From contig JAWAQK010000066.1 in assembly GCA_038893995.1 (NCBI GenBank), forward strand, positions 1-11,828: a DNA stretch of 11,828 nucleotides. The letters are read 5' to 3'. Positions 1 to 11,828 of this stretch are shown here, piece by piece; position 1 is the first letter of the stretch, and each line of letters starts with the position of its first letter. This DNA comes from Candidatus Thorarchaeota archaeon (GTDB lineage Archaea > Asgardarchaeota > Thorarchaeia > Thorarchaeales > Thorarchaeaceae). A model generated the notes under the pieces. That model saw only the letters and a list, made by a program, of their open reading frames with translations. It ran no database searches and was not told the origin of the DNA. The translations under genes and the position numbers were made by a program.

Positions 1-1242
1 ACTGAAATAGTCGGAAACGTCCTTGCGGACTTTCCAGTTGGTGACGACTACACGATCTATCTCTATTTCAACGACACGCTGAACAACCGGCCCGTTGAGA
101 ACGCCTCTGCAACTGCCATATGGGAGAATGGGACGGTGTTGCTCACCCACGTGGGCAATGGTGTCTATCGCTTTGGTCCGTCGGAGACCGGCATTAGTAG
201 GCTCGAGATAAGGAGTCTGCCCTACTATATCACAGTCATCATGTCGAAGGGCAACTACAGCAGAGAACAGGTGACAGTCGGCATTGTCATCCGCCCCATT
301 AGGACGCAGATCATGATACTTAGTGCACCCGTGGAGGTCTATGTGGGCCAGGAGTTCACGGTCACGATCACCTACTGGGACTTGGACCACAACTTGCCAA
401 TCGCCGGAGCGATGAACTCTACAACTGGCACTCAGCTCGTGAGAGTGGGGCGGCTTGACAAGATGTATGGCAATGGTACATACGTCTTTGGATTCATGGG
501 TAGGTCTGTACAACAGTACCTGCTCAAGATAGCCCTCAGCAAGACGGACTACTCCGTTGCAGAGGCCACACTGGTGGTCTTTGTCCTGCTGTCACCAGAA
601 CAACAGATGCTCACCACGAGCATCTTCTATGGCGCTCTCCTGATCATGGCCGCGGTGGCATTGGGGACTGCATATGTGAGAGTATGGTCGGTGCCCAAGC
701 TGCTGAGACGCATCAGGTCGATGATAAAGGCACTGGACAAGGGAGTCATACCGACAGCACCACCTGTTCGTGACAGGAGATCATTGATATTGTCCTTCAT
801 GAACGAGGATCTTCGACCCCTATCTATCGTGAAGGGAGAGGAGGACCTGGCAAGATCTACAGTCGATGTCACAGTCCTTGATGTTGATCTGCTACTCGAG
901 GAGCTTCGGGCTGTCGTTGGCCTGACAGACTCTGACATAGCGGTCCTGCGCGAGGACCTTGAGAAGATGAGACCCAGTGAACGGGCCGGCTTCATAAGCG
1001 AGGTCATCAAACAGGAGCGGGCGCGTAGAGCCCGAGAGATAGCTGAGAGTACTAGACCGCCCGAAGAGAGGGCTGCTATGGCAAGGAAACCCACGGAGGA
1101 GGAACTTGCCCTGTTCAAGGAGAAACTACTTGCTATGGGAATTGAAGAGACCGAGGCCGACCTCATGGTGGAACAGGCCAGGACTCTGACAAAGGCCGAG
1201 ATAGATGCGCTGCTGGATCAGATAGGAGGTGACAAGGATTGA
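1..1242 (+). CDS. 5'-truncated large surface protein (paralog A): last two Ig-like repeats, single TM helix, ~185-aa helical cytoplasmic tail
   Basis: Frame 1 is open from base 1 (TEIVGNVLADFPVGDDYTIYLYFNDTLNNRPVENASATAIWENGTV...), so the GTG at 136 is internal. Two ~100-aa beta-rich repeats carry Y/F-x-D...A...GNG-x-Y motifs. A hydrophobic segment (IFYGALLIMAAVALGTAYVRVW, ~622-687) is followed by basic residues, and the tail is homologous to that of the downstream ORF. Stop is TGA at 1240-1242. Confidence 0.92.
   Translation, partial: TEIVGNVLADFPVGDDYTIYLYFNDTLNNRPVENASATAIWENGTVLLTHVGNGVYRFGPSETGISRLEIRSLPYYITVIMSKGNYSREQVTVGIVIRPIRTQIMILSAPVEVYVGQEFTVTITYWDLDHNLPIAGAMNSTTGTQLVRVGRLDKMYGNGTYVFGFMGRSVQQYLLKIALSKTDYSVAEATLVVFVLLSPEQQMLTTSIFYGALLIMAAVALGTAYVRVWSVPKLLRRIRSMIKALDKGVIPTAPPVRDRRSLILSFMNEDLRPLSIVKGEEDLARSTVDVTVLDVDLLLEELRAVVGLTDSDIAVLREDLEKMRPSERAGFISEVIKQERARRAREIAESTRPPEERAAMARKPTEEELALFKEKLLAMGIEETEADLMVEQARTLTKAEIDALLDQIGGDKD
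1224..1232 (+). promoter_or_regulatory. Shine-Dalgarno site AGGAGGTGA for the giant ORF
   Basis: Perfect AGGAGGTGA 6 nt upstream of the TTG at 1239. The TTG overlaps the upstream TGA stop (TTGA). Confidence 0.85.
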
Positions 1243-4200
1243 GGCACTTGAGGACCATCCTGGTATTCGTCGGACTGCTGCTGGTGATTGGCATCCCGGC
1301 AATCGTCTGGGCCCCCTCATACGAGCAGGTCACGCCTTCTGCAGTGACTGCTCCAGGTAGCGAAGGTCCCTCACGCCTGGTCGACCTTGGTGATGGCTTC
1401 GTCGTCGAAGTGGGGCCCTCCGAAACCCTGTACAGGTACACCCTGACAGAACAGGGTCTTGTAGAATGGGTGTCTCAGTCAGACCCGCTCCTGGCCTATG
1501 AGTACGGTCGTGGCGTCCATTCACAGCAACAACTTACCATGCGCTACATTCCGGGGTCAGGCACTACTGGCACATCACTCGTCGTGCCCACTGGGGCCGG
1601 CTGGGAGGGGTACCACGTAGATGTCTCTGTGAGCGGACTGACTGAGAACCGCACATGGGTCCAGAATCCGGACTTCACGACTTCGCTCACTCCCTGGACG
1701 GCAGGGACATCAAATGCGGGTTCTTTCAGCCTACCCATAACCCGATACCTCGCAGACGGTCGTGGCCCCGGTGACGGGTGTGTCGAGTTCGAGATCGACT
1801 CCCAATCCACTTCTGCGCCGTACTTCTACGATGCCGACGATCTCGCGTACGTGAGCCAGACCCTGACCATCAATAGGGGTACCGTGGTCTGGGCCGGGTT
1901 CAGGATGGACTACTGGGCCGATACGCAGGACGACACTCATTACGGAATGGAGGGTTCGTTCGCGATCTATGTTGATATTGAGGGTCAGAGGGAGTACATC
2001 CTGGTCTTCGGCGACATAGGTGCTGAGGAGACATGGTTTACCTCGCCAATGGTAGAGGTGAACCCCTCGATATTCGCCCTGCCCTCCGATCAGTCCGTGA
2101 GCCTGCAGATTGGTCTCTGGAGCAAGGTCACAGTCGGCTACACTCCCGAGATTGGCCCCCGTGCTAGAGTAGACAACTTCGAGCTCTACCTGAAGACCAG
2201 GGCAACACCAAGCAGTGTCAGTCTCACGATGAATGGAATAGCTGTGCAGGACGGGTCCGGGTATGGTCAGGGCTCCGTGAGTCAGACGCCGGGCACACCA
2301 TGGCACATGAATCCCATACTACTGAATTTCACATGGACGCCCAGTCCAAACCCGCCAAGTCCCAATCGTGTCATAGTGGTCGAGTTTGACGTGTCCGCGA
2401 CAATGTTCGCAAGAAGGTTGAACGTTCCGACGGTGTGGGACATATCTCCCACGGCCTACGGAGAGACTCTCCGTGTCCAAAACGGCACGGATGTGTTCCA
2501 CGCCACATACTTCTACGCTGACATCCCGTTCGGCTACGAGGACATGTACTTCTTCAACGTGTCATTAGATACGGACCGCGATGTCTACACTGTTGCAAGA
2601 CCTCTGGCACCATCAACGAATCTCACGAGCGGATGGACTGGTGGCCAGCCGGGTGACGGGTTCTTGAACGTATCAGCATATCTCGTCGCCACTGGTGCTG
2701 GAAGGTACGGTTACTGGCGTATACTCAGCAGGTCTCCCAATATGATCTCCGAAATCCAGATGTTCGACAAGACGAGTCTGACCTGGAAGAGGACAGTCGA
2801 CCTACGTGCTGGTATGACCACTAGGGCAAGGGCATTTGTCGGTGCCGCCTACCAGAACTCACTGGTGAACTTCACAGTCTACGCTCCTAGCGGCGCGACC
2901 TGGACGACTCTGAGTGCGGTTGTAGATGCTCAGGGATATGCCACGACCACCACCTTCACCCTGGGCGGAGGCAACGCCACGGCTGGACAATGGATGGTTG
3001 AGGCAAGGTCGAACGACAGGGGAACAAGTGGCCACTGGACACATGCAGGATTCTTCAAGAGGACGTTCTCGGTGACACACGCATCGAGCCTGAAGATGGT
3101 GTATCCCACCGAGGCTGCACAGACTTGGGTCACCAATGTCACGTACGGTGACCTGATGCTCTTGATAGTGAGAGCGAACGACACTGACAGTGGGACACCC
3201 ATCGCTGGCGGTTCCCTTCAGTACAGCTGGATCGGTGGCAGTGGCTCATTTGATGACACAGGCACCGGCGACTACACGAAGGTATTGGACACATCTGTGA
3301 TTCAGCAATATGGCTCCGGCCAGTATGTCATCACTCTGAGCTGGTCGGCGTCCTACTATGATCCGCGCGTCGCGTATCTGACTGTCAATGTCAACTATCG
3401 TGCGACTCTGACTTCTCCACAGTATCCTGGTATCTCAGGGGCAGTCGGGTCAGGACAGTGGTTCGATGTAGTCTTCCAGAATGTCAACGGCACCGGCATA
3501 ACAGGCGCACTCATCACCTGCAACTGGACCAGCTCCTATTCTGTGAACCCTCAAGGAGGAGGTCTCTACCGGGTCAGCCTGTCAGGATCTGGTGTTCCAC
3601 TGGGCCGATACCTTCTGCAGGTCTATGCCCGCGCGCCGTTTGTTGTGACTCAATCACTATTGATCTATGTTGACGTACGTGAGATCTACAACATTGTGGA
3701 CTACTCGGCCAACCAGCTATCGATACCGGTTGGTGAATCACGATCTTTCACTCTCAGATGGACTGACGTAGAGACTGGCCTGCCAATAACTGGAGGTAGT
3801 TCCTACATCACATGTAACTGGACATCAGCTGCGCCCGTGGACTACACTGTCACTGAGAAGTCTTCAGGTCTATACGAGATCGTCATCTACACTAGTGATT
3901 CCGACCCTCTTACTGGACCGAACGAGTTTCGTAACGTGGTGTTCAATGTAAACAGACGGTACTACCAGAACCATACGTTCACGATTGGAGTACAAGTCCG
4001 TACACATAACACCCTGTTCGTGTTGGACTCTCCAGTGGAGCAGACCCCGTATGGGTCCACCATTGTGGTGCTCGTCTACTATGAAGACATTGACCTGATG
4101 CTACCTATCACTAATGGCACGGGCAATGTCCGCATCGTAGTCACTTCGTCCGGTGTCTCTGACCTACGATATCACGTCCTGCCCTCTAGTCTGGGAAACG

Positions 4201-7200
4201 GTCACTATAACATAACCATCGGTGCAAACCAGTGGGGCAACATTGGGTGGAAAGATCTGGTCATCACCGTTGAATGGACAGGACCTGTCCTGAAGTACAT
4301 GGGTAAGACTATCATGACGTCTGTGCGAGTCCTGGGAACGAATACGGACCTATTCATCGAGCAGGCTCCGCCGGTCACCTACTACCTTGAGACGGTGTCC
4401 TTCACCATAGTGTACTACGACTCGGTCAACGCGACGAGGATATCAAACAGTACGTTCCACGTCCATCTGTCGATCTCACCCATCACACCCGGTCATCCTG
4501 TGACCCAGTCAGACTTCGTCATTCATGAGATTGGCACCTCGGGGGTGTACTCTCTCTCGATCGACAGCACGAAGTTCGGAAAGACTGGAGTCTTCTCATT
4601 CTTGATTGGAGTGTCTTGGGACCTCGGAGTCGCGCCGCACTACGAGAATCGAACCCTTCTCGTGACACTGGTGATCCTCGAACGTCCCACCTACCTGGAT
4701 TACCAGATTGCCCCCTCGGCGCCATACGGCCTGCCAGTGACATTCGTGTTTGCCTACGTTGACTCATTGACCGCCACCAGGATACCACAGTCCGCATCGC
4801 TACACATTCTTATCAACGAGCCCTATGTCGTCTACAGCTACGAATACAGTGCAGTTGATCGGTCGTTCACGCTGACGATCAACACATCCAGTCTGGGTGG
4901 CGTAGGGACCTTCATCATCCATCTGAACATCACCTGGGTCGGTGCGCCATACTACGCATCTATCCCCGCGTATTCCCTCAGTGTGAGCGTTCTGTACAGG
5001 AACACACAGCTGGTGCATGAACCATTCCAGCTGCCTCAGTACGGCAGCAGTGTGGTGTTCACATTCACCTACATCGATCTGGTATCCGGCAGTCCTCAGG
5101 GAATGGTCGGCGTGCTCAGTCTGAATGAGACTCTGTACGGGTACTACTCGGTAGTCTTCCTGGGCGACGGAGTCTTTCGCGTCACGCTAGACACGTCAGG
5201 ATTTCCATCCACTGGCAGGTACACCATTCTGGCCAGGGTGGTGTACACTGGCACCAATTTTGAGAACAACGCGACCGAGACCCTTGCAATCACAGTGTTG
5301 CCAAGGTCTACTCAGATGATCTATTATAGCCCTGACCCCGCCCAGTACTTGGACTCTGTTGTCTTCGTGCTCACATACGTTGACGACTTGTCTGGCAGTG
5401 GAATCGATGGTGCATCAATCACTGTGAGTTGCAACACATCCAGTCTGCCCCTAGTCAGAGACAGCAATTACTGGGTCACACCTCTTGGGAACGGAAACTA
5501 CAGGGTCTCTGTCAGCACCGTTGCACTCGGTAGCCTTGGGACATTCATCCTCAACGTTACTGCATCCTATTCCGGTGCTCCCTTCTACCACGCGAACAGT
5601 AGGACGTTGAACGCCCGAGTGACTGAGAGAGCGACGGCCATCCTCATTGTTCGGACTCCAGGCGACACGCCGTTCCTCGAGAACGTGACTCTGAGGTTCA
5701 GATACATCGACAGCACTACAGGCGCTCTCATAATCCTGTCCAAGAGCAACATAGTCCTCAAGCACGGGCCATCCCAGTCTGTGATTGCTGCGAGTCAGTA
5801 CTACCTGCTCTACTCCGGGACCTACTACGAAATAGGGTTCAACTCCACTCTCCTGAGCCCAACGTCACTGGTCACAAACTGGGAGATTCTGATGGAGATC
5901 GATATGGGTCTCGTTGAACCGTTCTATGCTGCAAAGTCCGCAACGACTCGGGCCAACACCATAGAGCGTCCAACCACTATCACGTTCCCGCAGGTCTCGG
6001 TAGTCCCATACCTGAGTAACCTCACGATTGTCGTCAGGTACCTCGACTATCTCCGGGGCGTTGGCGTGAGCGGAGCCGATGTCTCGGTCTCCTTCTTGAA
6101 CATCTCGAATCCAGTATATCACCTGATAGTGCTACCCGGTGGAGAGTATAAGCTCATCGTACCCACTGGTCAGTTTGGCAGACCCGGAACCGTCTACTTC
6201 AGCCTGACCCTCAGCAGATCAGGACTGCCCTTCTATGCGTCCAGGTCTATCACCGATGTTCCAGCTGTTGTCAGGCCTATTCAGGCTCTCCTTGTTGTCC
6301 CAGCTGCCTCTCTCGGTGTCTTGCCTCCAGGGTATCCAATAGTCATCAATGCCACACTGTACGACATGGACTACGGCGGGGTGGTGTCGGGTGCCACTGT
6401 CACGACGACTTGGACAGCGGTGACAGGCAGACCGTACCAGGTGCATGAGATTCAACCCGGTGTGTACAGGATCACACTCGATACACAGGGACTCCTGGCT
6501 CAGAAGTATACGTTTAGTGTGATTGCTCAGAAGCAGCACTTCGCTGATGCCTCCGCACCTGTAGTCGTTCAGCCAGGTTCACAGATATTGGCCGTTGAAC
6601 CGAGAACGTTGTACTTCTCTGCGGAATGGGGTCAACTCATACATGTGGTCGTTGATGTCAGACAGTTCCAGGACAACACTCCAGTCCCCGGGGCCAGTGT
6701 CGTCCTGTCATGGGGCACTCTCAATCTGGAGTTTGCAGATCTGGGAAATGGAACATACTCCCTTGACCTAGACACATCTCTCGGCAGGGCCGGAGCATAC
6801 ACCCCGACTATCACCGTGTCAAGGGCATTCTACCAGCCCCGACAGGTCGTTGTAGACCTGTTGGTATTCAAGGCAAATGGTGTCATTATTCCCTCCGTCC
6901 CAGTCCTCAACATAGTGAGGTCGACAAGTCAGTACCTGGTGGTCTATCTCAGCGACGTCAGAAGAGGTATACCGATTTCCGATGCACTGGTGAGTGTGGA
7001 GTGGAATACTGTCACCTATCCGATGTCCTACAATGGGACTCCGGGTTATTACGCTGCACTCATCGATACAGTGGGACTCCCCATGGGTCTACACTCCGCC
7101 GTTGTGCGGGCCAGTCACGACAATCTTATGTTCCTCGACCTGACAGTCGACGTAAGTATCATCCCTGTTCCTGCCAGAGTAGGCCTCGTGGGCGGGGCGA

Positions 7201-8978
7201 TCTCGATATCTCTATACTATGGTGAGATCCTCCACCTAGCTGCAGAGTACAACGACACCTACTTCGGGGGTCACATATCTGGAGCGAATGTGACTCTCAT
7301 CATAGGTTCCTTCACAGTAGTCCTGGAAGAGGGTCTTCCAGGAGTATATGCTGGGACCTTCAATACATCTCTTCTGAATGCCCAGAGCCTGTTGGTGAGA
7401 GTGGTGGCCTCAAAGGAAGGGTACGCGCGTGTACAGTCCACCGTTCTTGTAGTGATTCGACCGTTACCCACACTGGCTACCTCCCCAATGCCTATCCAGT
7501 CTGCCTACCGTGGCGACGAACTCAGCTACCTGGTGACTCTCTATCAGACCCTGACCAACAGCACAATAGCTGGGGCCGATGTGACTGTCACATGGACTGG
7601 TACTGTCAGTGGCGTGTTGGATCTTGGCAACGGATCGTACCTGATATCTCTCGTGGCTAGCGTAGACCTGCCCAGAGCCTACACTGTGGAAGTCACCCTA
7701 GTGGTCCCAAACCACGAGATCGCAACGATAGATCTTGAACTTCTCGTGAGGCGCACTCCAGCGTACGTCGTAGGTGACACCAGTTACGATACTCCCGTGG
7801 GAAGAGCTGGTCAGGTGTCCTTCTATGTCGTGAACGCGCTCACCGGGGGTAATATCACCGGTCTCAACGGCATTGCTATCTGGGACCTGTTCGGCGAACA
7901 GCCCCTCCTCATCTCGGGAGACCTCTACATCCTGACCGTCAGCAGTGATTTCCCTATTGGAGTCTATGGCGTGGCAATCACTTTCCCGACAAGTCTGTAC
8001 GAGATTGCCACATTTGCACTGGTCGTGGAGGTGCGCACGATCAGGACTACGATCCAGATCGAGAATACGACAATACAGACATCGCCAGGTGCTGCATTCG
8101 AGGTGACGCTCCGGTATGTTGATCTCGACAGCGGCGGAGTCGGCATAGATGGCGCTACGATTGACGTCTATCTTCAGGGCACTAGTCTGATCTACTATCC
8201 TGATCGTGTCAGATATCTTGGCGACGGCATCTATGTGCTGCTCTTCCAGTCCAACGAGGGTGGAGTCTTCACAGTGACTGTCACGCTCCTGAAGGAGCGC
8301 CACGAGCCCAAGACGATCGTATTGAACGTCATCTCTGATGTGTCTCAGCAGCAGCTCCTCGTTCAGAGCCTCCTCCAGTGGGGCAGTGTTCTGATAGTCC
8401 TGGCCTCCGCAATCACGGTCCTCTGGGTGAAGTATCTGAGCGTCCCCCGCATGATCCGTATCATGAACGGAATGATCTCGACACTCTCCAAGGGCCGCAT
8501 TCCCAAGATCCCGGTCGTCCTCTCAAGGCAGAGCATTGCTGCAGGAATTGTCAACGACGAACTGAGGGCAATCGGGCTCAGCAAGTCACTTGACGACATA
8601 GACGGAGAACCGATCAAACCGATAGTTCCAGAGGTCAACGAGCTACTACAGCGCCTGGCTGAGATAACGGGCCTGGGTGATGCAGAGCTTGACGCATTCA
8701 GGGCCGACCTTGCACGGATGAAACCCAGCGAGAGACCAGGCTTCCTCCGTGAGGTCATCAGACAAGAGGAGGCTCGCAGGGCTGAGCAGCTGGCTCGTGT
8801 TGAGGCTCCCACAGTCATTCCGTCTGGTGTCACGCCTGCTGATCTGGAGGAACTGAAACTGAAGCTGAAGCGCAAGGGTATTGCGCCAGAGGAGATAGAG
8901 CTCATCCTGGAGCACGCAAAGAGTCTGTCGAGGGCTGACCTCGAGGCTCTACTTGATAGCCTTGGAATAGACCTGTAG
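1239..8978 (+). CDS. Giant (2579 aa) type I membrane surface glycoprotein (paralog B): signal peptide, CBM-like head, ~17 Ig-like repeats, TM helix, cytoplasmic helical tail
   Basis: Uninterrupted 7.7-kb ORF with a strong SD. N-terminus MRHLRTILVFVGLLLVIGIPAIVWA has a basic n-region, an h-region and a V-x-A end. Periodic motifs YxD..G..I.GA / (L)GNG.Y / LDT / R.T.L recur. C-terminal hydrophobic helix LLQWGSVLIVLASAITVLWVKYL (~8370-8438) is followed by a charged helical tail. Confidence 0.95.
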   Translation: MRHLRTILVFVGLLLVIGIPAIVWAPSYEQVTPSAVTAPGSEGPSRLVDLGDGFVVEVGPSETLYRYTLTEQGLVEWVSQSDPLLAYEYGRGVHSQQQLTMRYIPGSGTTGTSLVVPTGAGWEGYHVDVSVSGLTENRTWVQNPDFTTSLTPWTAGTSNAGSFSLPITRYLADGRGPGDGCVEFEIDSQSTSAPYFYDADDLAYVSQTLTINRGTVVWAGFRMDYWADTQDDTHYGMEGSFAIYVDIEGQREYILVFGDIGAEETWFTSPMVEVNPSIFALPSDQSVSLQIGLWSKVTVGYTPEIGPRARVDNFELYLKTRATPSSVSLTMNGIAVQDGSGYGQGSVSQTPGTPWHMNPILLNFTWTPSPNPPSPNRVIVVEFDVSATMFARRLNVPTVWDISPTAYGETLRVQNGTDVFHATYFYADIPFGYEDMYFFNVSLDTDRDVYTVARPLAPSTNLTSGWTGGQPGDGFLNVSAYLVATGAGRYGYWRILSRSPNMISEIQMFDKTSLTWKRTVDLRAGMTTRARAFVGAAYQNSLVNFTVYAPSGATWTTLSAVVDAQGYATTTTFTLGGGNATAGQWMVEARSNDRGTSGHWTHAGFFKRTFSVTHASSLKMVYPTEAAQTWVTNVTYGDLMLLIVRANDTDSGTPIAGGSLQYSWIGGSGSFDDTGTGDYTKVLDTSVIQQYGSGQYVITLSWSASYYDPRVAYLTVNVNYRATLTSPQYPGISGAVGSGQWFDVVFQNVNGTGITGALITCNWTSSYSVNPQGGGLYRVSLSGSGVPLGRYLLQVYARAPFVVTQSLLIYVDVREIYNIVDYSANQLSIPVGESRSFTLRWTDVETGLPITGGSSYITCNWTSAAPVDYTVTEKSSGLYEIVIYTSDSDPLTGPNEFRNVVFNVNRRYYQNHTFTIGVQVRTHNTLFVLDSPVEQTPYGSTIVVLVYYEDIDLMLPITNGTGNVRIVVTSSGVSDLRYHVLPSSLGNGHYNITIGANQWGNIGWKDLVITVEWTGPVLKYMGKTIMTSVRVLGTNTDLFIEQAPPVTYYLETVSFTIVYYDSVNATRISNSTFHVHLSISPITPGHPVTQSDFVIHEIGTSGVYSLSIDSTKFGKTGVFSFLIGVSWDLGVAPHYENRTLLVTLVILERPTYLDYQIAPSAPYGLPVTFVFAYVDSLTATRIPQSASLHILINEPYVVYSYEYSAVDRSFTLTINTSSLGGVGTFIIHLNITWVGAPYYASIPAYSLSVSVLYRNTQLVHEPFQLPQYGSSVVFTFTYIDLVSGSPQGMVGVLSLNETLYGYYSVVFLGDGVFRVTLDTSGFPSTGRYTILARVVYTGTNFENNATETLAITVLPRSTQMIYYSPDPAQYLDSVVFVLTYVDDLSGSGIDGASITVSCNTSSLPLVRDSNYWVTPLGNGNYRVSVSTVALGSLGTFILNVTASYSGAPFYHANSRTLNARVTERATAILIVRTPGDTPFLENVTLRFRYIDSTTGALIILSKSNIVLKHGPSQSVIAASQYYLLYSGTYYEIGFNSTLLSPTSLVTNWEILMEIDMGLVEPFYAAKSATTRANTIERPTTITFPQVSVVPYLSNLTIVVRYLDYLRGVGVSGADVSVSFLNISNPVYHLIVLPGGEYKLIVPTGQFGRPGTVYFSLTLSRSGLPFYASRSITDVPAVVRPIQALLVVPAASLGVLPPGYPIVINATLYDMDYGGVVSGATVTTTWTAVTGRPYQVHEIQPGVYRITLDTQGLLAQKYTFSVIAQKQHFADASAPVVVQPGSQILAVEPRTLYFSAEWGQLIHVVVDVRQFQDNTPVPGASVVLSWGTLNLEFADLGNGTYSLDLDTSLGRAGAYTPTITVSRAFYQPRQVVVDLLVFKANGVIIPSVPVLNIVRSTSQYLVVYLSDVRRGIPISDALVSVEWNTVTYPMSYNGTPGYYAALIDTVGLPMGLHSAVVRASHDNLMFLDLTVDVSIIPVPARVGLVGGAISISLYYGEILHLAAEYNDTYFGGHISGANVTLIIGSFTVVLEEGLPGVYAGTFNTSLLNAQSLLVRVVASKEGYARVQSTVLVVIRPLPTLATSPMPIQSAYRGDELSYLVTLYQTLTNSTIAGADVTVTWTGTVSGVLDLGNGSYLISLVASVDLPRAYTVEVTLVVPNHEIATIDLELLVRRTPAYVVGDTSYDTPVGRAGQVSFYVVNALTGGNITGLNGIAIWDLFGEQPLLISGDLYILTVSSDFPIGVYGVAITFPTSLYEIATFALVVEVRTIRTTIQIENTTIQTSPGAAFEVTLRYVDLDSGGVGIDGATIDVYLQGTSLIYYPDRVRYLGDGIYVLLFQSNEGGVFTVTVTLLKERHEPKTIVLNVISDVSQQQLLVQSLLQWGSVLIVLASAITVLWVKYLSVPRMIRIMNGMISTLSKGRIPKIPVVLSRQSIAAGIVNDELRAIGLSKSLDDIDGEPIKPIVPEVNELLQRLAEITGLGDAELDAFRADLARMKPSERPGFLREVIRQEEARRAEQLARVEAPTVIPSGVTPADLEELKLKLKRKGIAPEEIELILEHAKSLSRADLEALLDSLGIDL
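1656..2195 (+). other. Putative galactose-binding-like / CBM4-9-type jelly-roll domain in the head of paralog B
   Basis: Begins WVQNPDFTTSLTPW (N-x-x-F...W pattern typical of CBM4/9/16/22 starts) and ends ARVDNFELYLK (x-D-[DN]-hydrophobic-x-L terminal strand). Aromatic- and Asp-rich in between. Pattern recognition only. Confidence 0.5.
3072..8340 (+). repeat. Protein-level tandem array of ~17 degenerate ~95-115-aa Ig-like beta-sandwich repeats
   Basis: Hand-delineated units such as ...YGSTIVVLVYYEDIDLMLPITNG...LGNGHY..., ...YLDSVVFVLTYVDDLSGSGIDGASITV...LGNGNY..., ...DNTPVPGASVVLSW...DLGNGTYSLDLDTS..., ...NSTIAGADVTVTW...DLGNGSY.... Average ~103 aa. No obvious DNA-level identity between units. 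Confidence 0.8.
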
Positions 8979-8989
8979 ATGACGATAGT

Positions 8990-9019
8990 AGGAGGTGTGG
9001 GCTGCGGCCCAGACCTCCT
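8990..9019. terminator. GC-rich inverted repeat in the 58-bp gap between convergent genes (candidate bidirectional terminator or 3'-end stabiliser)
   Basis: AGGAGGT-G-TGGGC-[TGCG]-GCCCA-G-ACCTCCT gives a 7-bp plus 5-bp stem with one mismatch and a 4-nt loop. There is no flanking T-tract, so the function is inferred from position. Confidence 0.55.
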
Positions 9020-9036
9020 GCGACCAAACAGGCGTT

Positions 9037-10062
9037 CTAAGATCCCTGGGTCGCCCAACTCCTTTCGAGCTCTTGAAGGAGCTCTGGCTCCCTATCGCTG
9101 ATGTCTCTGGCGGGAGCAAGCACATCGACTAGGTAATCCGCAACAGCCCTCTTCAGGTCCTGTGGATGGAGCTGGCCAGAGATGTATGCAGACTCTAGCT
9201 CTGCATAGGAGTTGAATGTCACATCCCCACCGAACTTCTCCTTTCTCCTCACGGTGAGGGTACCGGTTCGTGGAAATATGATCAACTTCGCGGTGGATGT
9301 GATAGGGTTCTGATCGACTGAACCCTGGGGACAGTACGCCTTGTCGATCTTGGTCCTGATATCGTCGGGCGGGTCGGTCACTCGAATGTGCGAGAGAGGA
9401 TCGCTGGCGGACATCTTGGATCCTCCACCCCTGAGCGACGGGAGCAGCGGTGTAAAGAGATAGCTCCCGCTCTTGAAGCCGATTTCTGGGAGTACCTCTC
9501 GTCCCAGCATGTAGATCTTTCTCTGGTCTGTGCCACCGACAGTTATGTCGGCCTTGAGATACTTCACATCGAGTATCTGCAGCAGCGGGTACAGGAGTTC
9601 TGATACTTTCGCCTCCTCCTTCATCCTCACTACCTCTGTGGCAGCCCGCTTTGCTCTGACTGCGGTGACCAGGCCTGCTACGAGGTAGAGGTCTTCGACA
9701 TAGTCTCGCTTGTGCTGGTAGCTGGAACCACGTACGAACCGGATCCTGTCGGCGTATGGTCCAAGTAATGCCCGGATGCACATCTCGTAGTACCTGGAAC
9801 GCAGGTCCATGAGTTCGAACGGTGTCTTCCGATCGTCCAGATAAGCATGGTAGTCAGCGATAAGGACTGTGCCCTTGCCACCCACCTCCGCCAGCTGCAT
9901 CAGCTTCGTGAGTGGGACCAGGTATGCAAAGTGGAAGGGTCCCGTGGGAGCCGTGCCGTAGTAGAAGTTGAAACTACGCCTGCTCTCTAGTATCTCACGG
10001 ACTTCTTCCTTGGTCACAACCTCTTCTGTGTTGCTGATCACCAGTTCGAATGTGTCCTTCAC
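9037..10062 (-). CDS. tyrS: Tyrosine--tRNA ligase (class Ic, archaeal/eukaryotic type), 341 aa
   Basis: [12 protein letters not shown] (HIGH-equivalent), [25 protein letters not shown], KMSAS (KMSKS-equivalent), KAYCP, and the EKFGG and LHPQDLK anticodon-domain motifs. GTG start has an in-frame TGA three codons upstream. Confidence 0.97.
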   Translation of the reverse strand: [341 protein letters not shown]

Positions 10063-10099
10063 GGATACTCACTGACTCTGAGCTTCATGGTGCTCTGTT

Positions 10100-11152
10100 T
10101 TAATCTTGCTGGGTTTTCTGGGCGGGTGTACATGTCTTCCTAGGCAGCATTGACAATGCGACAAACCCGACTGCCACGCTGAACCACAGGGTCACCGACC
10201 TTATGATGAGTACTGCCGCGAATGCTGAGGCCCTGGCAATGCCAAGTACTCTCTCAAGTACGGCCTGTGCAAATCCCTCGTATCCACCGAGTCCCCCCGG
10301 CAGAAACACAAGGACTGCACCAACTACTGATGCCCCTGCATGAACGAATGTGGCCTGTGCAAGCAACACGAGTGATTCTGAAGACAGCGAGGGAGTCCCC
10401 AATCCCGTAAGCACACTCAGTAGGAGCCAGAGCTCCACACACTCGACGAACCATCCCGGGATGCTTATCCCCGTAGTCCAGATGAGTGACCTCGGGGTGA
10501 GGGTCCTGACCATTGTGTCTTCGACGTGGTCGCAGCTGTCGCTGAACCTATTGAGACCTCGTGACTTGACCAGTCTTCTGACGATCTTCTGGTAGAACTC
10601 TCGTTTCCCAAGCACGATGGCAGCCAGAAGGACAAGCGCTCCCACAATCGCCATGAGCACGAGTTCGTTTCCTTGACTGAGCCCTCCGATGTAGCCGACT
10701 GCTGCGAGGACGACAAGCGCCAGCATGTCAGTGAGCCTCTCGGAGAGGACAATTGGTGAGGTCTTGGCAATCGGTGCGCCAGTCAGGTCCTTGCAGAATA
10801 TTCCCTTCACCATCTCCCCCATCTTTCCCGGTGTTGCTGTCAGCGTGAAACCTGCTAGAAACACCTTGAACGAGTCTGAAGGTCGGATAGAGACACCCAC
10901 CTTGCCGAGGAAGTACTGCCACTTCCCGAAACGGATCAGATAGTTCGTGAATGACAAGACCATCATGGTCGGTAGTATCCACATGGGGACTGTGCTCAGG
11001 GCAGAAAGGACATCCTCTATCTTCGCGTAGAGGGCCAATACGAGGTATACCACTATGGCCAGCGCAGCCACCAGTGCTAGCCTACGCAGAGTAAGCATAC
11101 GCCCGGCATGTTCCCCGGCCCCTGTCTCCTGATCGCTTGCTCTCACAGACAT
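10100..11152 (-). CDS. UPF0104 / lysylphosphatidylglycerol-synthase TM-domain (flippase-like, AglD2/YbhN family) membrane protein, ~350 aa
   Basis: Multiple TM helices and family motifs RFGKWQYFL, TPGKMGEMVK, ERLTD, PGGLGGYEG, R-x-x-T-x-W. I prefer the ATG at 11152 (GAGG 4 nt upstream, 10-nt overlap with the PHP gene end) over 11284, which overlaps the PHP gene by ~140 nt. ATG 11098 is an alternative. Confidence 0.88.
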   Translation of the reverse strand: MSVRASDQETGAGEHAGRMLTLRRLALVAALAIVVYLVLALYAKIEDVLSALSTVPMWILPTMMVLSFTNYLIRFGKWQYFLGKVGVSIRPSDSFKVFLAGFTLTATPGKMGEMVKGIFCKDLTGAPIAKTSPIVLSERLTDMLALVVLAAVGYIGGLSQGNELVLMAIVGALVLLAAIVLGKREFYQKIVRRLVKSRGLNRFSDSCDHVEDTMVRTLTPRSLIWTTGISIPGWFVECVELWLLLSVLTGLGTPSLSSESLVLLAQATFVHAGASVVGAVLVFLPGGLGGYEGFAQAVLERVLGIARASAFAAVLIIRSVTLWFSVAVGFVALSMLPRKTCTPAQKTQQD

Positions 11153-11802
11153 AGTTTCCTCGCCCTCTGCCAAGCCATTGTAGGGAGTTGCCACAGGAAT
11201 AGCGACGAGTGTCCAGAGATGATGGTCTCTCCTCTCCTCAGGCGGTCGAATATACAGTCTGCAGAACTGATATCGGCGAGCCATGTCTTTGCATGTCCGA
11301 GTTCCAGAAAGCTGTGTGAGTCACTCCCTGCTGTCATTGGTTTCTCGAGTCGTCGTGCAAGATTCTGCGCCCAGCTGTTAAACACTGGAAGTATGCATCT
11401 CGAGTTGATCCCCTCTATGAGGTCAATGTGCCTCCTGATGAGCGCATCTGGCAACGATCTTCTCATCGCGGTGTGCTTTCTCATGGGGTCCCTCGGGTGA
11501 GGCAGGACGGTTATCCCAGACTGTTCGTGAATTGCCTCGGCAGTCTCCTCAAAGCTGCTACGTCTTATCGGGTCACTGACGAATAGTCCGATCAGCTCTC
11601 CAAAGTCCGTCGTCATGAACTCGCAGCCGTTGATGATGTAGATGTCGTCGCTGATGATTGGTCTAGTCAGCGATGGCGTCCCATGGTCTGTGAGTGCAAT
11701 CCCTGAGAGTCCCCTCCGTCTGGCCCATCTTGGGATGTCTCTTGGCCTCATGAGGCCATCTTTCGAGTGGTGACTGTGGGTATGCAGGTCGAATGCTGAC
11801 AT
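11143..11802 (-). CDS. PHP-domain metal-dependent phosphoesterase, ~219 aa
   Basis: PHP motifs DLHTHS..S.DG, ALTDHG, GCE, HP, IEGIN and GSDSH. An in-frame TAG at 11826-11824 shows the gene is complete. Start is ATG 11802 or GTG 11823/11820. Confidence 0.92.
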   Translation of the reverse strand: MSAFDLHTHSHHSKDGLMRPRDIPRWARRRGLSGIALTDHGTPSLTRPIISDDIYIINGCEFMTTDFGELIGLFVSDPIRRSSFEETAEAIHEQSGITVLPHPRDPMRKHTAMRRSLPDALIRRHIDLIEGINSRCILPVFNSWAQNLARRLEKPMTAGSDSHSFLELGHAKTWLADISSADCIFDRLRRGETIISGHSSLFLWQLPTMAWQRARKLCL

Positions 11803-11828
11803 CCTGGTCGTCCCGGTCACCACCTATG

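Follow-up and report, generated by a model that had tools for sequence, protein, structure and literature searches.

Why would an archaeon keep long, strongly conserved cytoplasmic tails on its giant surface proteins, when the cytoplasmic end of an archaeal surface protein is normally only a few residues long? The question is raised by an 11,828-nucleotide stretch of DNA from Candidatus Thorarchaeota archaeon (GenBank assembly GCA_038893995.1, contig JAWAQK010000066.1, positions 1 to 11,828; hereafter the window), which contains the 3′ part of one giant surface-protein gene (A) and its neighbor, the giant gene B. A first-pass annotation of this DNA pointed to a 119-residue block directly after the membrane helix in both proteins, and suggested that it is probably an unannotated domain that provides a binding surface or forms an in-register dimer. 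The block is real, far beyond chance, predicted to be folded, uncatalogued, and under strong constraint, and the tail as it stands is an uncharacterised lineage-specific domain. We give about an even chance to the reading that block and tail form a putative docking surface for a cytoplasmic partner that is common to all paralog classes.

Conservation and predicted structure of the tail

The gapless block was reproduced by translation and BLASTP. The segments encoded at 688-1044 (A) and 8439-8795 (B) are 119 residues each and share 48/119 identities and 75/119 positives with 0 gaps (E 5e-30). Homology continues past residue 119 to both C-termini, with 37% identity over 182 columns between 688-1239 and 8439-8975 (E 6e-37), and the single gap in the full-tail alignment is 4 residues long and falls within a Pro-containing linker. 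The motif picked out in the block is conserved, with 16 of its 22 residues identical in A and B, but the coordinates first assigned to it (967-1017 and 8718-8768) span only the first 17 residues; the full motif occupies 967-1032 and 8718-8783. As had been suspected, the ectodomains are more diverged than the tails. Over the last 204 ectodomain residues of A, identity with the matching region of B is 25%, with gaps (E 4e-6), and no pair of repeats exceeds 30%. At 37-40% for paralogs and about 60% for orthologs, tail conservation exceeds that of the ectodomain. The source genome also encodes a third tail paralog with the same layout and a longer linker; it is the C-terminal part of a 4213-residue frame located on contig 7.

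We assembled 93 tails, 26 A-type and 67 B-type. There is no indel in the first 121-124 columns of either type, and the joint alignment of the block has 122 columns and no gap. Seventeen residues are invariant in the 93 tails (P3, R7, P22, R30, K49, L69, L70, L73, L79, M94, S97, R99, G101, F102, E105, V106, and R113), and others are at least 90% conserved (S1, M12, G19, N39, A74, G78, D90, L91, E98, Q109, E110, R114, and A115). Both window tails carry all 17 invariant residues, directly after the one membrane helix of a giant frame, and both continue into a variable linker and a terminal three-helix module (G147, A160, L163, and L171 in B numbering). On sequence comparison, the motif is the most conserved stretch of the tail family, beyond this A/B pair; its conservation extends to the orthologs, where it is invariant across the 93 tails, and the third paralog class keeps M94, S97, E98, F102, E105, V106, Q109, E110, and R113. 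In the tail tree, A-type tails form a clade with a support of 1.0, and only five positions (10, 65, 77, 87, and 100) differ consistently between A-type and B-type tails. Rooting the tree on the third paralog class gave no clean B clade, and the “B” bin is heterogeneous.

The serine of the PSER sequence, Ser97, had been put forward as a phosphosite, an idea that is speculative. The residue is invariant in the 93 tails, but in distant Asgard homologues, aligned by eye, the equivalent loop of the hairpin contains Ala or Pro. Ser97 is located at the N-terminal end of the long helix (first residue 96 in one model and 99 in the other), and in these models the position suits a helix-capping role.

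AlphaFold2 predicts the B tail (28 sequences) to be all helical, with no disordered segment, a mean predicted local distance difference test score (pLDDT) of 90.0, and a predicted template modeling score (pTM) of 0.50. The tail is thus predicted to be folded rather than disordered. The model has helices at residues 2-17, 30-45, 64-77, 81-92, 99-122, 133-145, 150-162, and 165-175, and its single weak block is the linker, at approximately residues 121-130. A model of the 122-residue block alone (93 sequences) has a pLDDT of 90.5 and a pTM of 0.49. In both cases the pieces are modeled as confidently helical and their mutual packing is left unpredicted (high pLDDT, low pTM). Because pTM is low despite the high pLDDT, we treated residues 1-58 and 59-122 as separate units. 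The 119 residues had been described as a single block; we find instead two modules, with different phyletic ranges (see below).

Helix 2-17 is strongly amphipathic (hydrophobic moment, muH, 0.57-0.71; 0.71 in A), and residues 1-30 have a net charge of approximately +7 (approximately +6.6 in A-type tails). All tail modules after residue 30 are acidic, with charges of approximately -5 to -8 per module, and the whole tail carries -10 to -13. Based on the positive-inside rule, we infer that the tail is cytoplasmic, and helix 2-17 would lie on the inner membrane face. Nucleic-acid binding by the tail was considered and rejected on the acidic charge.

The tail matches no catalogued family. Pfam searches with tails and whole proteins gave at best 11-14 bits, compared with curated cut-offs of 24-28 bits, NCBIfam searches with tails and with full-length B (2579 residues) produced no score close to a cut-off, and only sub-threshold matches were found when the 67 tails were scanned singly. 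The commonest of these is RecX_HTH1 (PF21982), in the terminal module of 34/67 tails (best E 4e-4); in the window protein it reaches 14.3 bits (E 0.04, against a gathering score of 26 bits), in the terminal module only. The terminal module, which is not part of the 119-residue block, resembles the first domain of RecX in having three helices in approximately 45 residues; unlike RecX, it is acidic, membrane-tethered, and not a RecA regulator. A PDB sequence search with the tail profile returned designed helical proteins and scattered weak matches only, and Foldseek returned nothing at E <= 1e-3 for the whole-tail and 122-residue models. The best VIA-align Z, 7.1-7.2 over 60-62 residues, was to generic three-helix bundles and is inside the tool's stated noise range for helical models; no match to a solved fold, three-helix bundles like those of KIX, protein A, and adenovirus cement proteins included, rose above background. 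Fold matches covered residues 55-127 or 130-179, and residues 1-55 were hardly probed by the fold search. An hhalign comparison of residues 59-122 with the terminal module aligned 22 columns only (helix 81-92 with 133-145; probability 72%, E 3.4e-5), and internal duplication is possible.

The NCBIfam scan of whole B also gave no match to an archaeal S-layer C-terminal sorting signal (PGF-CTERM/archaeosortase type), and the 179-residue, predicted folded end of B is unlike the very short cytoplasmic end of archaeosortase substrates. With no Pfam or NCBIfam family, no meaningful PDB sequence match, and no significant fold match, the earlier description of the block as probably an unannotated domain stands, and none of these searches revealed a housekeeping domain. 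A literature search for these surface proteins or tails found nothing relevant, and absence there is not proof.

The number of terminal modules varies between paralogs. In some tails or metagenomic tail fragments there are up to four tandem copies (P0097, P0100, and P0101). In a 129-residue metagenomic protein (P0119), the terminal module follows a lipobox-like signal peptide and an acidic linker. This layout would put the module outside the cell, contrary to the giants, and the frame may be mis-called.

Distribution of the tail modules

A whole-tail profile built from the three tails of the source genome has matches in 24/24 genomes of the same family and in the single genome of the same order, with 2-11 matches per genome. 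Nearly all of these matches are in open frames of up to approximately 5,900 residues, and the shorter frames are mostly on short contigs. Among 1.84 billion representative proteins, 130 match the tail at E <= 1e-3. Most public records that contain the tail bear the title Candidatus Thorarchaeota, and a small number name Promethearchaeota, Hermodarchaeota, or uncultured archaeon instead. Full-length relatives of B vary little in length (2553-2600 residues), and nearly all are annotated “hypothetical protein”. One public record, of a B-type giant fragment (P0191), is named “type II toxin-antitoxin system VapB family antitoxin”; this name is probably a mis-annotation derived from weak Rv0623/VapB-like matches in the helical tail (PF07704, 15/67 tails).

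We searched the modules at residues 1-58 and 59-122 each against the same 251 Asgard genomes. The unit at residues 59-122 was found in 57/59 genomes of the same family (the two without a match are 74% and 84% complete) and in 1/1 of the same order, and there are 2 weak matches in the approximately 190 other Asgard genomes, which belong to 26 families. The juxtamembrane element, residues 1-58, was found in 58/59 genomes of the family, in 1/1 of the order, and in 35 other Asgard genomes of 8 other families. Distant tails (L031-L034) have the juxtamembrane element and then a looser hairpin, G-L-T-x-x-E ... [DE]-R ... K-x-Q. The hairpin of the 59-122 unit may be older than the family, though it is recognisable mainly there.

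The juxtamembrane element (profile positions 11-48) also occurs on a 168-residue protein (G000:C7:19149-19655) that consists of an N-terminal membrane helix and a small helical domain, with almost no ectodomain. Small frames like this one (137-214 residues) match in many relatives.

Proposed docking and its rivals

We propose that giant single-pass surface proteins of Thorarchaeota carry a modular, folded cytoplasmic tail, and that the 119-residue block makes up the two-thirds of it nearest the membrane. Residues 1-58 would comprise S-[VI]-P after the membrane helix, then a strongly basic amphipathic helix lying along the inner face of the membrane, and, past a G-x-[IV]-P turn, a second helix. 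The juxtamembrane element predates the family and is present on surface proteins of several other Asgard lineages. Residues 59-122 would form a small three-helix bundle that is specific to the family and order. Its motif, M-x-P-S-E-R-x-G-F...E-V-I-x-Q-E-x-x-R-R-A, is predicted to provide a loop and the start of the long last helix, on one face of which an invariant Phe/Val core would lie among Glu, Gln, Glu, and Arg residues. Set at a fixed distance from the membrane, this face may be the docking site for a partner of A, B, and third-type tails, and the second small three-helix module, on a flexible linker, may make an additional contact. The distance is called fixed because there are no indels, and not because the fold is compact. 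The suggestion of a binding surface in the first-pass annotation is plausible, given that F102, E105, V106, Q109, E110, and R113 of helix 99-122 lie within a 140-degree arc on one face, but that the face binds is something we infer. The present analysis contributes the split of the block into Asgard-wide and family-specific parts, the set of invariant residues, the absence of gaps across the family, and the placement of the conserved motif residues on one side of a helix.

The layout of the tail resembles that of a receptor or adhesion molecule that communicates with the cell interior. Single-pass adhesion receptors of eukaryotes have tails with known cytoplasmic partners, talin and kindlin for integrin beta, and p120 and beta-catenin for the classical cadherins. 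Like these, the giants have a large, probably glycosylated repeat ectodomain, one membrane helix, a conserved juxtamembrane segment, and then further conserved, putative docking segments, and paralogous chains are encoded together. Unlike them, the giants end in predicted folded helical modules, whereas eukaryotic adhesion tails are mostly short and disordered until bound, and there is no relationship to integrin or cadherin tails in sequence or fold. One archaeal family keeps 2-11 giant surface proteins per genome that end in approximately 180 predicted folded, strongly conserved cytoplasmic residues. The tail provides three short expressible baits (1-58, 59-122, and the terminal module) for finding connections between the Asgard cell surface and cytoplasm.

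Co-distribution and one gene fusion make NPRL2-like longin/winged-helix proteins, encoded beside Arf-like GTPases, the leading candidate partner class. Four of these paralogs are encoded in the 2.3-Mb source genome, among them those at G000:C14:12135-13292, C7:24358-25110, and C1:125240-125947, and at least three have an Arf-like GTPase as a neighbor. In a cassette on contig 14, a 386-residue winged-helix protein is translationally abutted to a 2162-residue giant, and a longin-Arf-type GTPase and coiled-coil proteins follow. We liken the 386-residue protein to the published NPRL2-like longin family, a resemblance rather than a confirmed identity; Pfam sees the winged helix only, and the PDB sequence search gives MarR/ArsR-type matches only. 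In a six-sequence test, the block profile aligns weakly with the tail of the contig-14 giant (E 1.3e-4), at the expected place immediately behind the membrane helix. The Thorarchaeota tail itself, unlike the candidate partner class, is not a longin domain. The passages of Liu et al. considered here do not link the NPRL2-like longin family to surface proteins.

The adaptor family is present in 180/251 Asgard genomes, including every family with the juxtamembrane element, and among the 251 genomes the element was found in no family that lacks the adaptor. This co-distribution gives weak support for a link, because related genomes are not independent samples. In another Asgard family, a complete adaptor-like protein forms the cytoplasmic end of surface giants of 2655-2678 residues, and the one fused giant that we read has an ectodomain, a membrane helix, a basic stretch, and an adaptor-like domain, in that order. 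At G212:C9:430361-464784, in another Asgard family, there are five giant genes in tandem, whose products (2655-2678 residues) each end in a complete NPRL2-like longin/winged-helix protein behind the membrane helix.

The partner lead does not bear directly on residues 59-122. In a fuller scheme of outside-in coupling, the juxtamembrane element would recruit NPRL2-like regulators of Arf-like GTPases, and the bundle and terminal module would recruit a second component, for example a cytoskeletal one or one related to the endosomal sorting complex required for transport (ESCRT). We consider this scheme rather doubtful. If it is true, cell-surface events are wired to eukaryote-like GTPase switches in a prokaryote. 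Asgard archaea are the archaeal group closest to eukaryotes, and to our knowledge many of their small GTPases and longin proteins are still without known inputs.

A gene at G000:C7:25364-27994, on the contig of the third giant, encodes an 876-residue soluble protein that combines a coiled coil with a CarboxypepD_reg-type Ig-like domain and ends in an EAP30/Vps36 (ESCRT-II type) domain. The gene adjoins an NPRL2-like paralog and an Arf-like GTPase.

Several points weigh against docking and against this class of partner. The pTM of approximately 0.5 in both models leaves the arrangement of the sub-modules unpredicted, and the invariant charged residues on the helix face could also form intramolecular salt bridges. 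The two window tails have no sequons, but the 93 tails together have 34 where 25 are expected, so sequons are not scarce in relatives and lend no independent support to the topology, and sequon depletion was dropped as a topology argument. The co-distribution is nested and not matched, with the adaptor in 180/251 genomes and the element in 95/251. The juxtamembrane stretch of the fused giant matches the Thorarchaeota profile weakly in the six-sequence test (E 0.0055 for the 122-residue profile and 0.09 for the 58-residue profile); these values are too weak to claim homology with the Thorarchaeota element. In the 3 relatives examined, no adaptor gene adjoins the A-B pair, and the neighbors are an HExxHxxGxxH protein and a tyrosyl-tRNA synthetase (TyrRS).

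The tails could also bind each other. Co-translated A and B tails, or like tails, would pair in register under the membrane, in the manner of the in-register dimer first suggested, and so set both the stoichiometry of the giant ectodomains and the spacing between them, as in an S-layer that is ordered from within; we think this unlikely. A and B are translationally coupled giant single-pass proteins whose genes overlap in TTGA, behind a Shine-Dalgarno site (GGAGGTGA), and this overlap of stop and start suggests 1:1 synthesis. The tandem of A and then B recurs, with two tail matches on the same contig and strand, 7.6-7.9 kb (one gene length) apart, in 15/25 relatives from the family and order, and the fully supported A-type clade implies that the duplication is old and that both copies were kept. 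Strict gaplessness would suit register-dependent packing. However, the third paralog class has the same tail and motif on another contig, where no partner gene is visible, and the strongly acidic character of the tails disfavors simple self-association. The consistent differences between A and B give no sign of complementary surfaces, and because there are only five of them, a shared partner fits better. Complex prediction with the A tail (26 rows) and the B tail (67 rows) scored 0.00 in both runs, which had no controls, and counts neither for nor against pairing.

In another reading the tail is a structural anchor only. The basic amphipathic helix and compact helical units would serve to hold the large ectodomain in the membrane in a set topology and would have no specific partner, and conservation would reflect folding and lipid contacts. 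The stretch that immediately follows the membrane helix agrees with this in its strong positive charge and its amphipathicity, and the juxtamembrane element is found across Asgard lineages and on the 168-residue protein with almost no ectodomain, as a generic device would be. An anchor would not, however, need another 120 or so residues in which eight polar positions between 90 and 114 are invariant or nearly so, nor a second module that some tails have in up to four tandem copies, and the tail is conserved above the level of the ectodomain. We regard an anchoring role alone as improbable. It is also conceivable, though we find it highly improbable, that ectodomain shedding and intramembrane cleavage release the tail as a signaling fragment that acts in the cytoplasm, for example on DNA, as in Notch. 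The conserved upstream neighbor of A, a secreted and membrane-anchored HExxHxxGxxH protein, and the RecX three-helix matches in the terminal module would fit such a role. Those matches are all below the Pfam cut-off, the charge beyond residues 1-30 is unsuited to nucleic acids, and, within the regions examined, the locus has no intramembrane protease associated with it. Docking of a partner shared by all paralog classes is the reading we prefer.

The locus and its neighboring genes

The frame of A is open from base 1 of the window, with 413 codons visible, and the visible part has the same layout as B: ectodomain, one membrane helix, and tail. There are 6 N-glycosylation sequons in the ectodomain part of visible A. 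Protein B has an N-terminal hydrophobic signal/anchor at residues 1-29 and 39 NxS/T sequons in its ectodomain, and the giant surface proteins are probably N-glycosylated. Features of the window are listed in Table 1.

Table 1. Positions of genes, protein modules, and other features in the window
Feature	Position	Strand	Remark
Gene A, 3′ part of giant surface-protein gene	1-1242	+	Window start is the contig end (G000:C66:1)
A transmembrane helix, approximately residues 207-229 of visible frame	619-687	+	Hydropathy scan
A tail residues 1-58, juxtamembrane element	688-861	+	S-V-P, basic amphipathic helix 2-17, K-G-x-I-P turn, helix at approximately 30-45 (predicted)
A tail residues 59-122, three-helix unit with motif	862-1053	+	
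A motif	967-1032	+	MRPSERAGFISEVIKQERARRA; predicted loop and first half of long helix
A variable linker	1054-1083	+	
A C-terminal three-helix module	1084-1239	+	
A/B gene junction	1225-1242	+	GGAGGTGA at 1225-1232; TTG start of B at 1239-1241; TGA stop of A at 1240-1242
Gene B, 2579-residue giant single-pass surface protein	1239-8978	+	
B transmembrane helix, approximately residues 2377-2400	8367-8438	+	Hydropathy scan
B tail residues 1-58, juxtamembrane element	8439-8612	+	
B tail residues 59-122, three-helix unit	8613-8804	+	Helices 64-77, 81-92, 99-122
B motif	8718-8783	+	MKPSERPGFLREVIRQEEARRA
B linker	8805-8819	+	
B C-terminal three-helix module	8820-8975	+	Helices 133-145, 150-162, 165-175
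Class I Tyr/Trp-type tRNA synthetase	9037-10062	-	Downstream of B, convergent
Lysyl-phosphatidylglycerol-synthase-type membrane protein	10100-11284	-	
PHP-domain protein	11143-11823	-	

In the 3 relatives inspected the gene order is a secreted protease-like protein, A, B, and a convergent TyrRS. The upstream neighbor of A in these relatives is a secreted, membrane-anchored protein with the HExxHxxGxxH zinc-protease motif. The source genome encodes a protein of this kind at G000:C53:7773-9893 (minus strand); it is a 745-residue secreted protein with a HETMHAIGIMH motif, a C-terminal membrane anchor, and no Pfam match. Its orthologs (46-53% identity) are directly upstream of the A-type giant gene in 3 relatives, and contig 53 therefore probably joins the start of the window. 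The protein may process or trim the giants.

The position of TyrRS is kept in 2 relatives examined, with 73% identity between those two, and its convergent placement with B is probably merely conserved synteny. Further downstream, the listed frames of the lysyl-phosphatidylglycerol-synthase-type and PHP-domain proteins share 142 bases, and the downstream gene of this overlap probably has its true start codon later.

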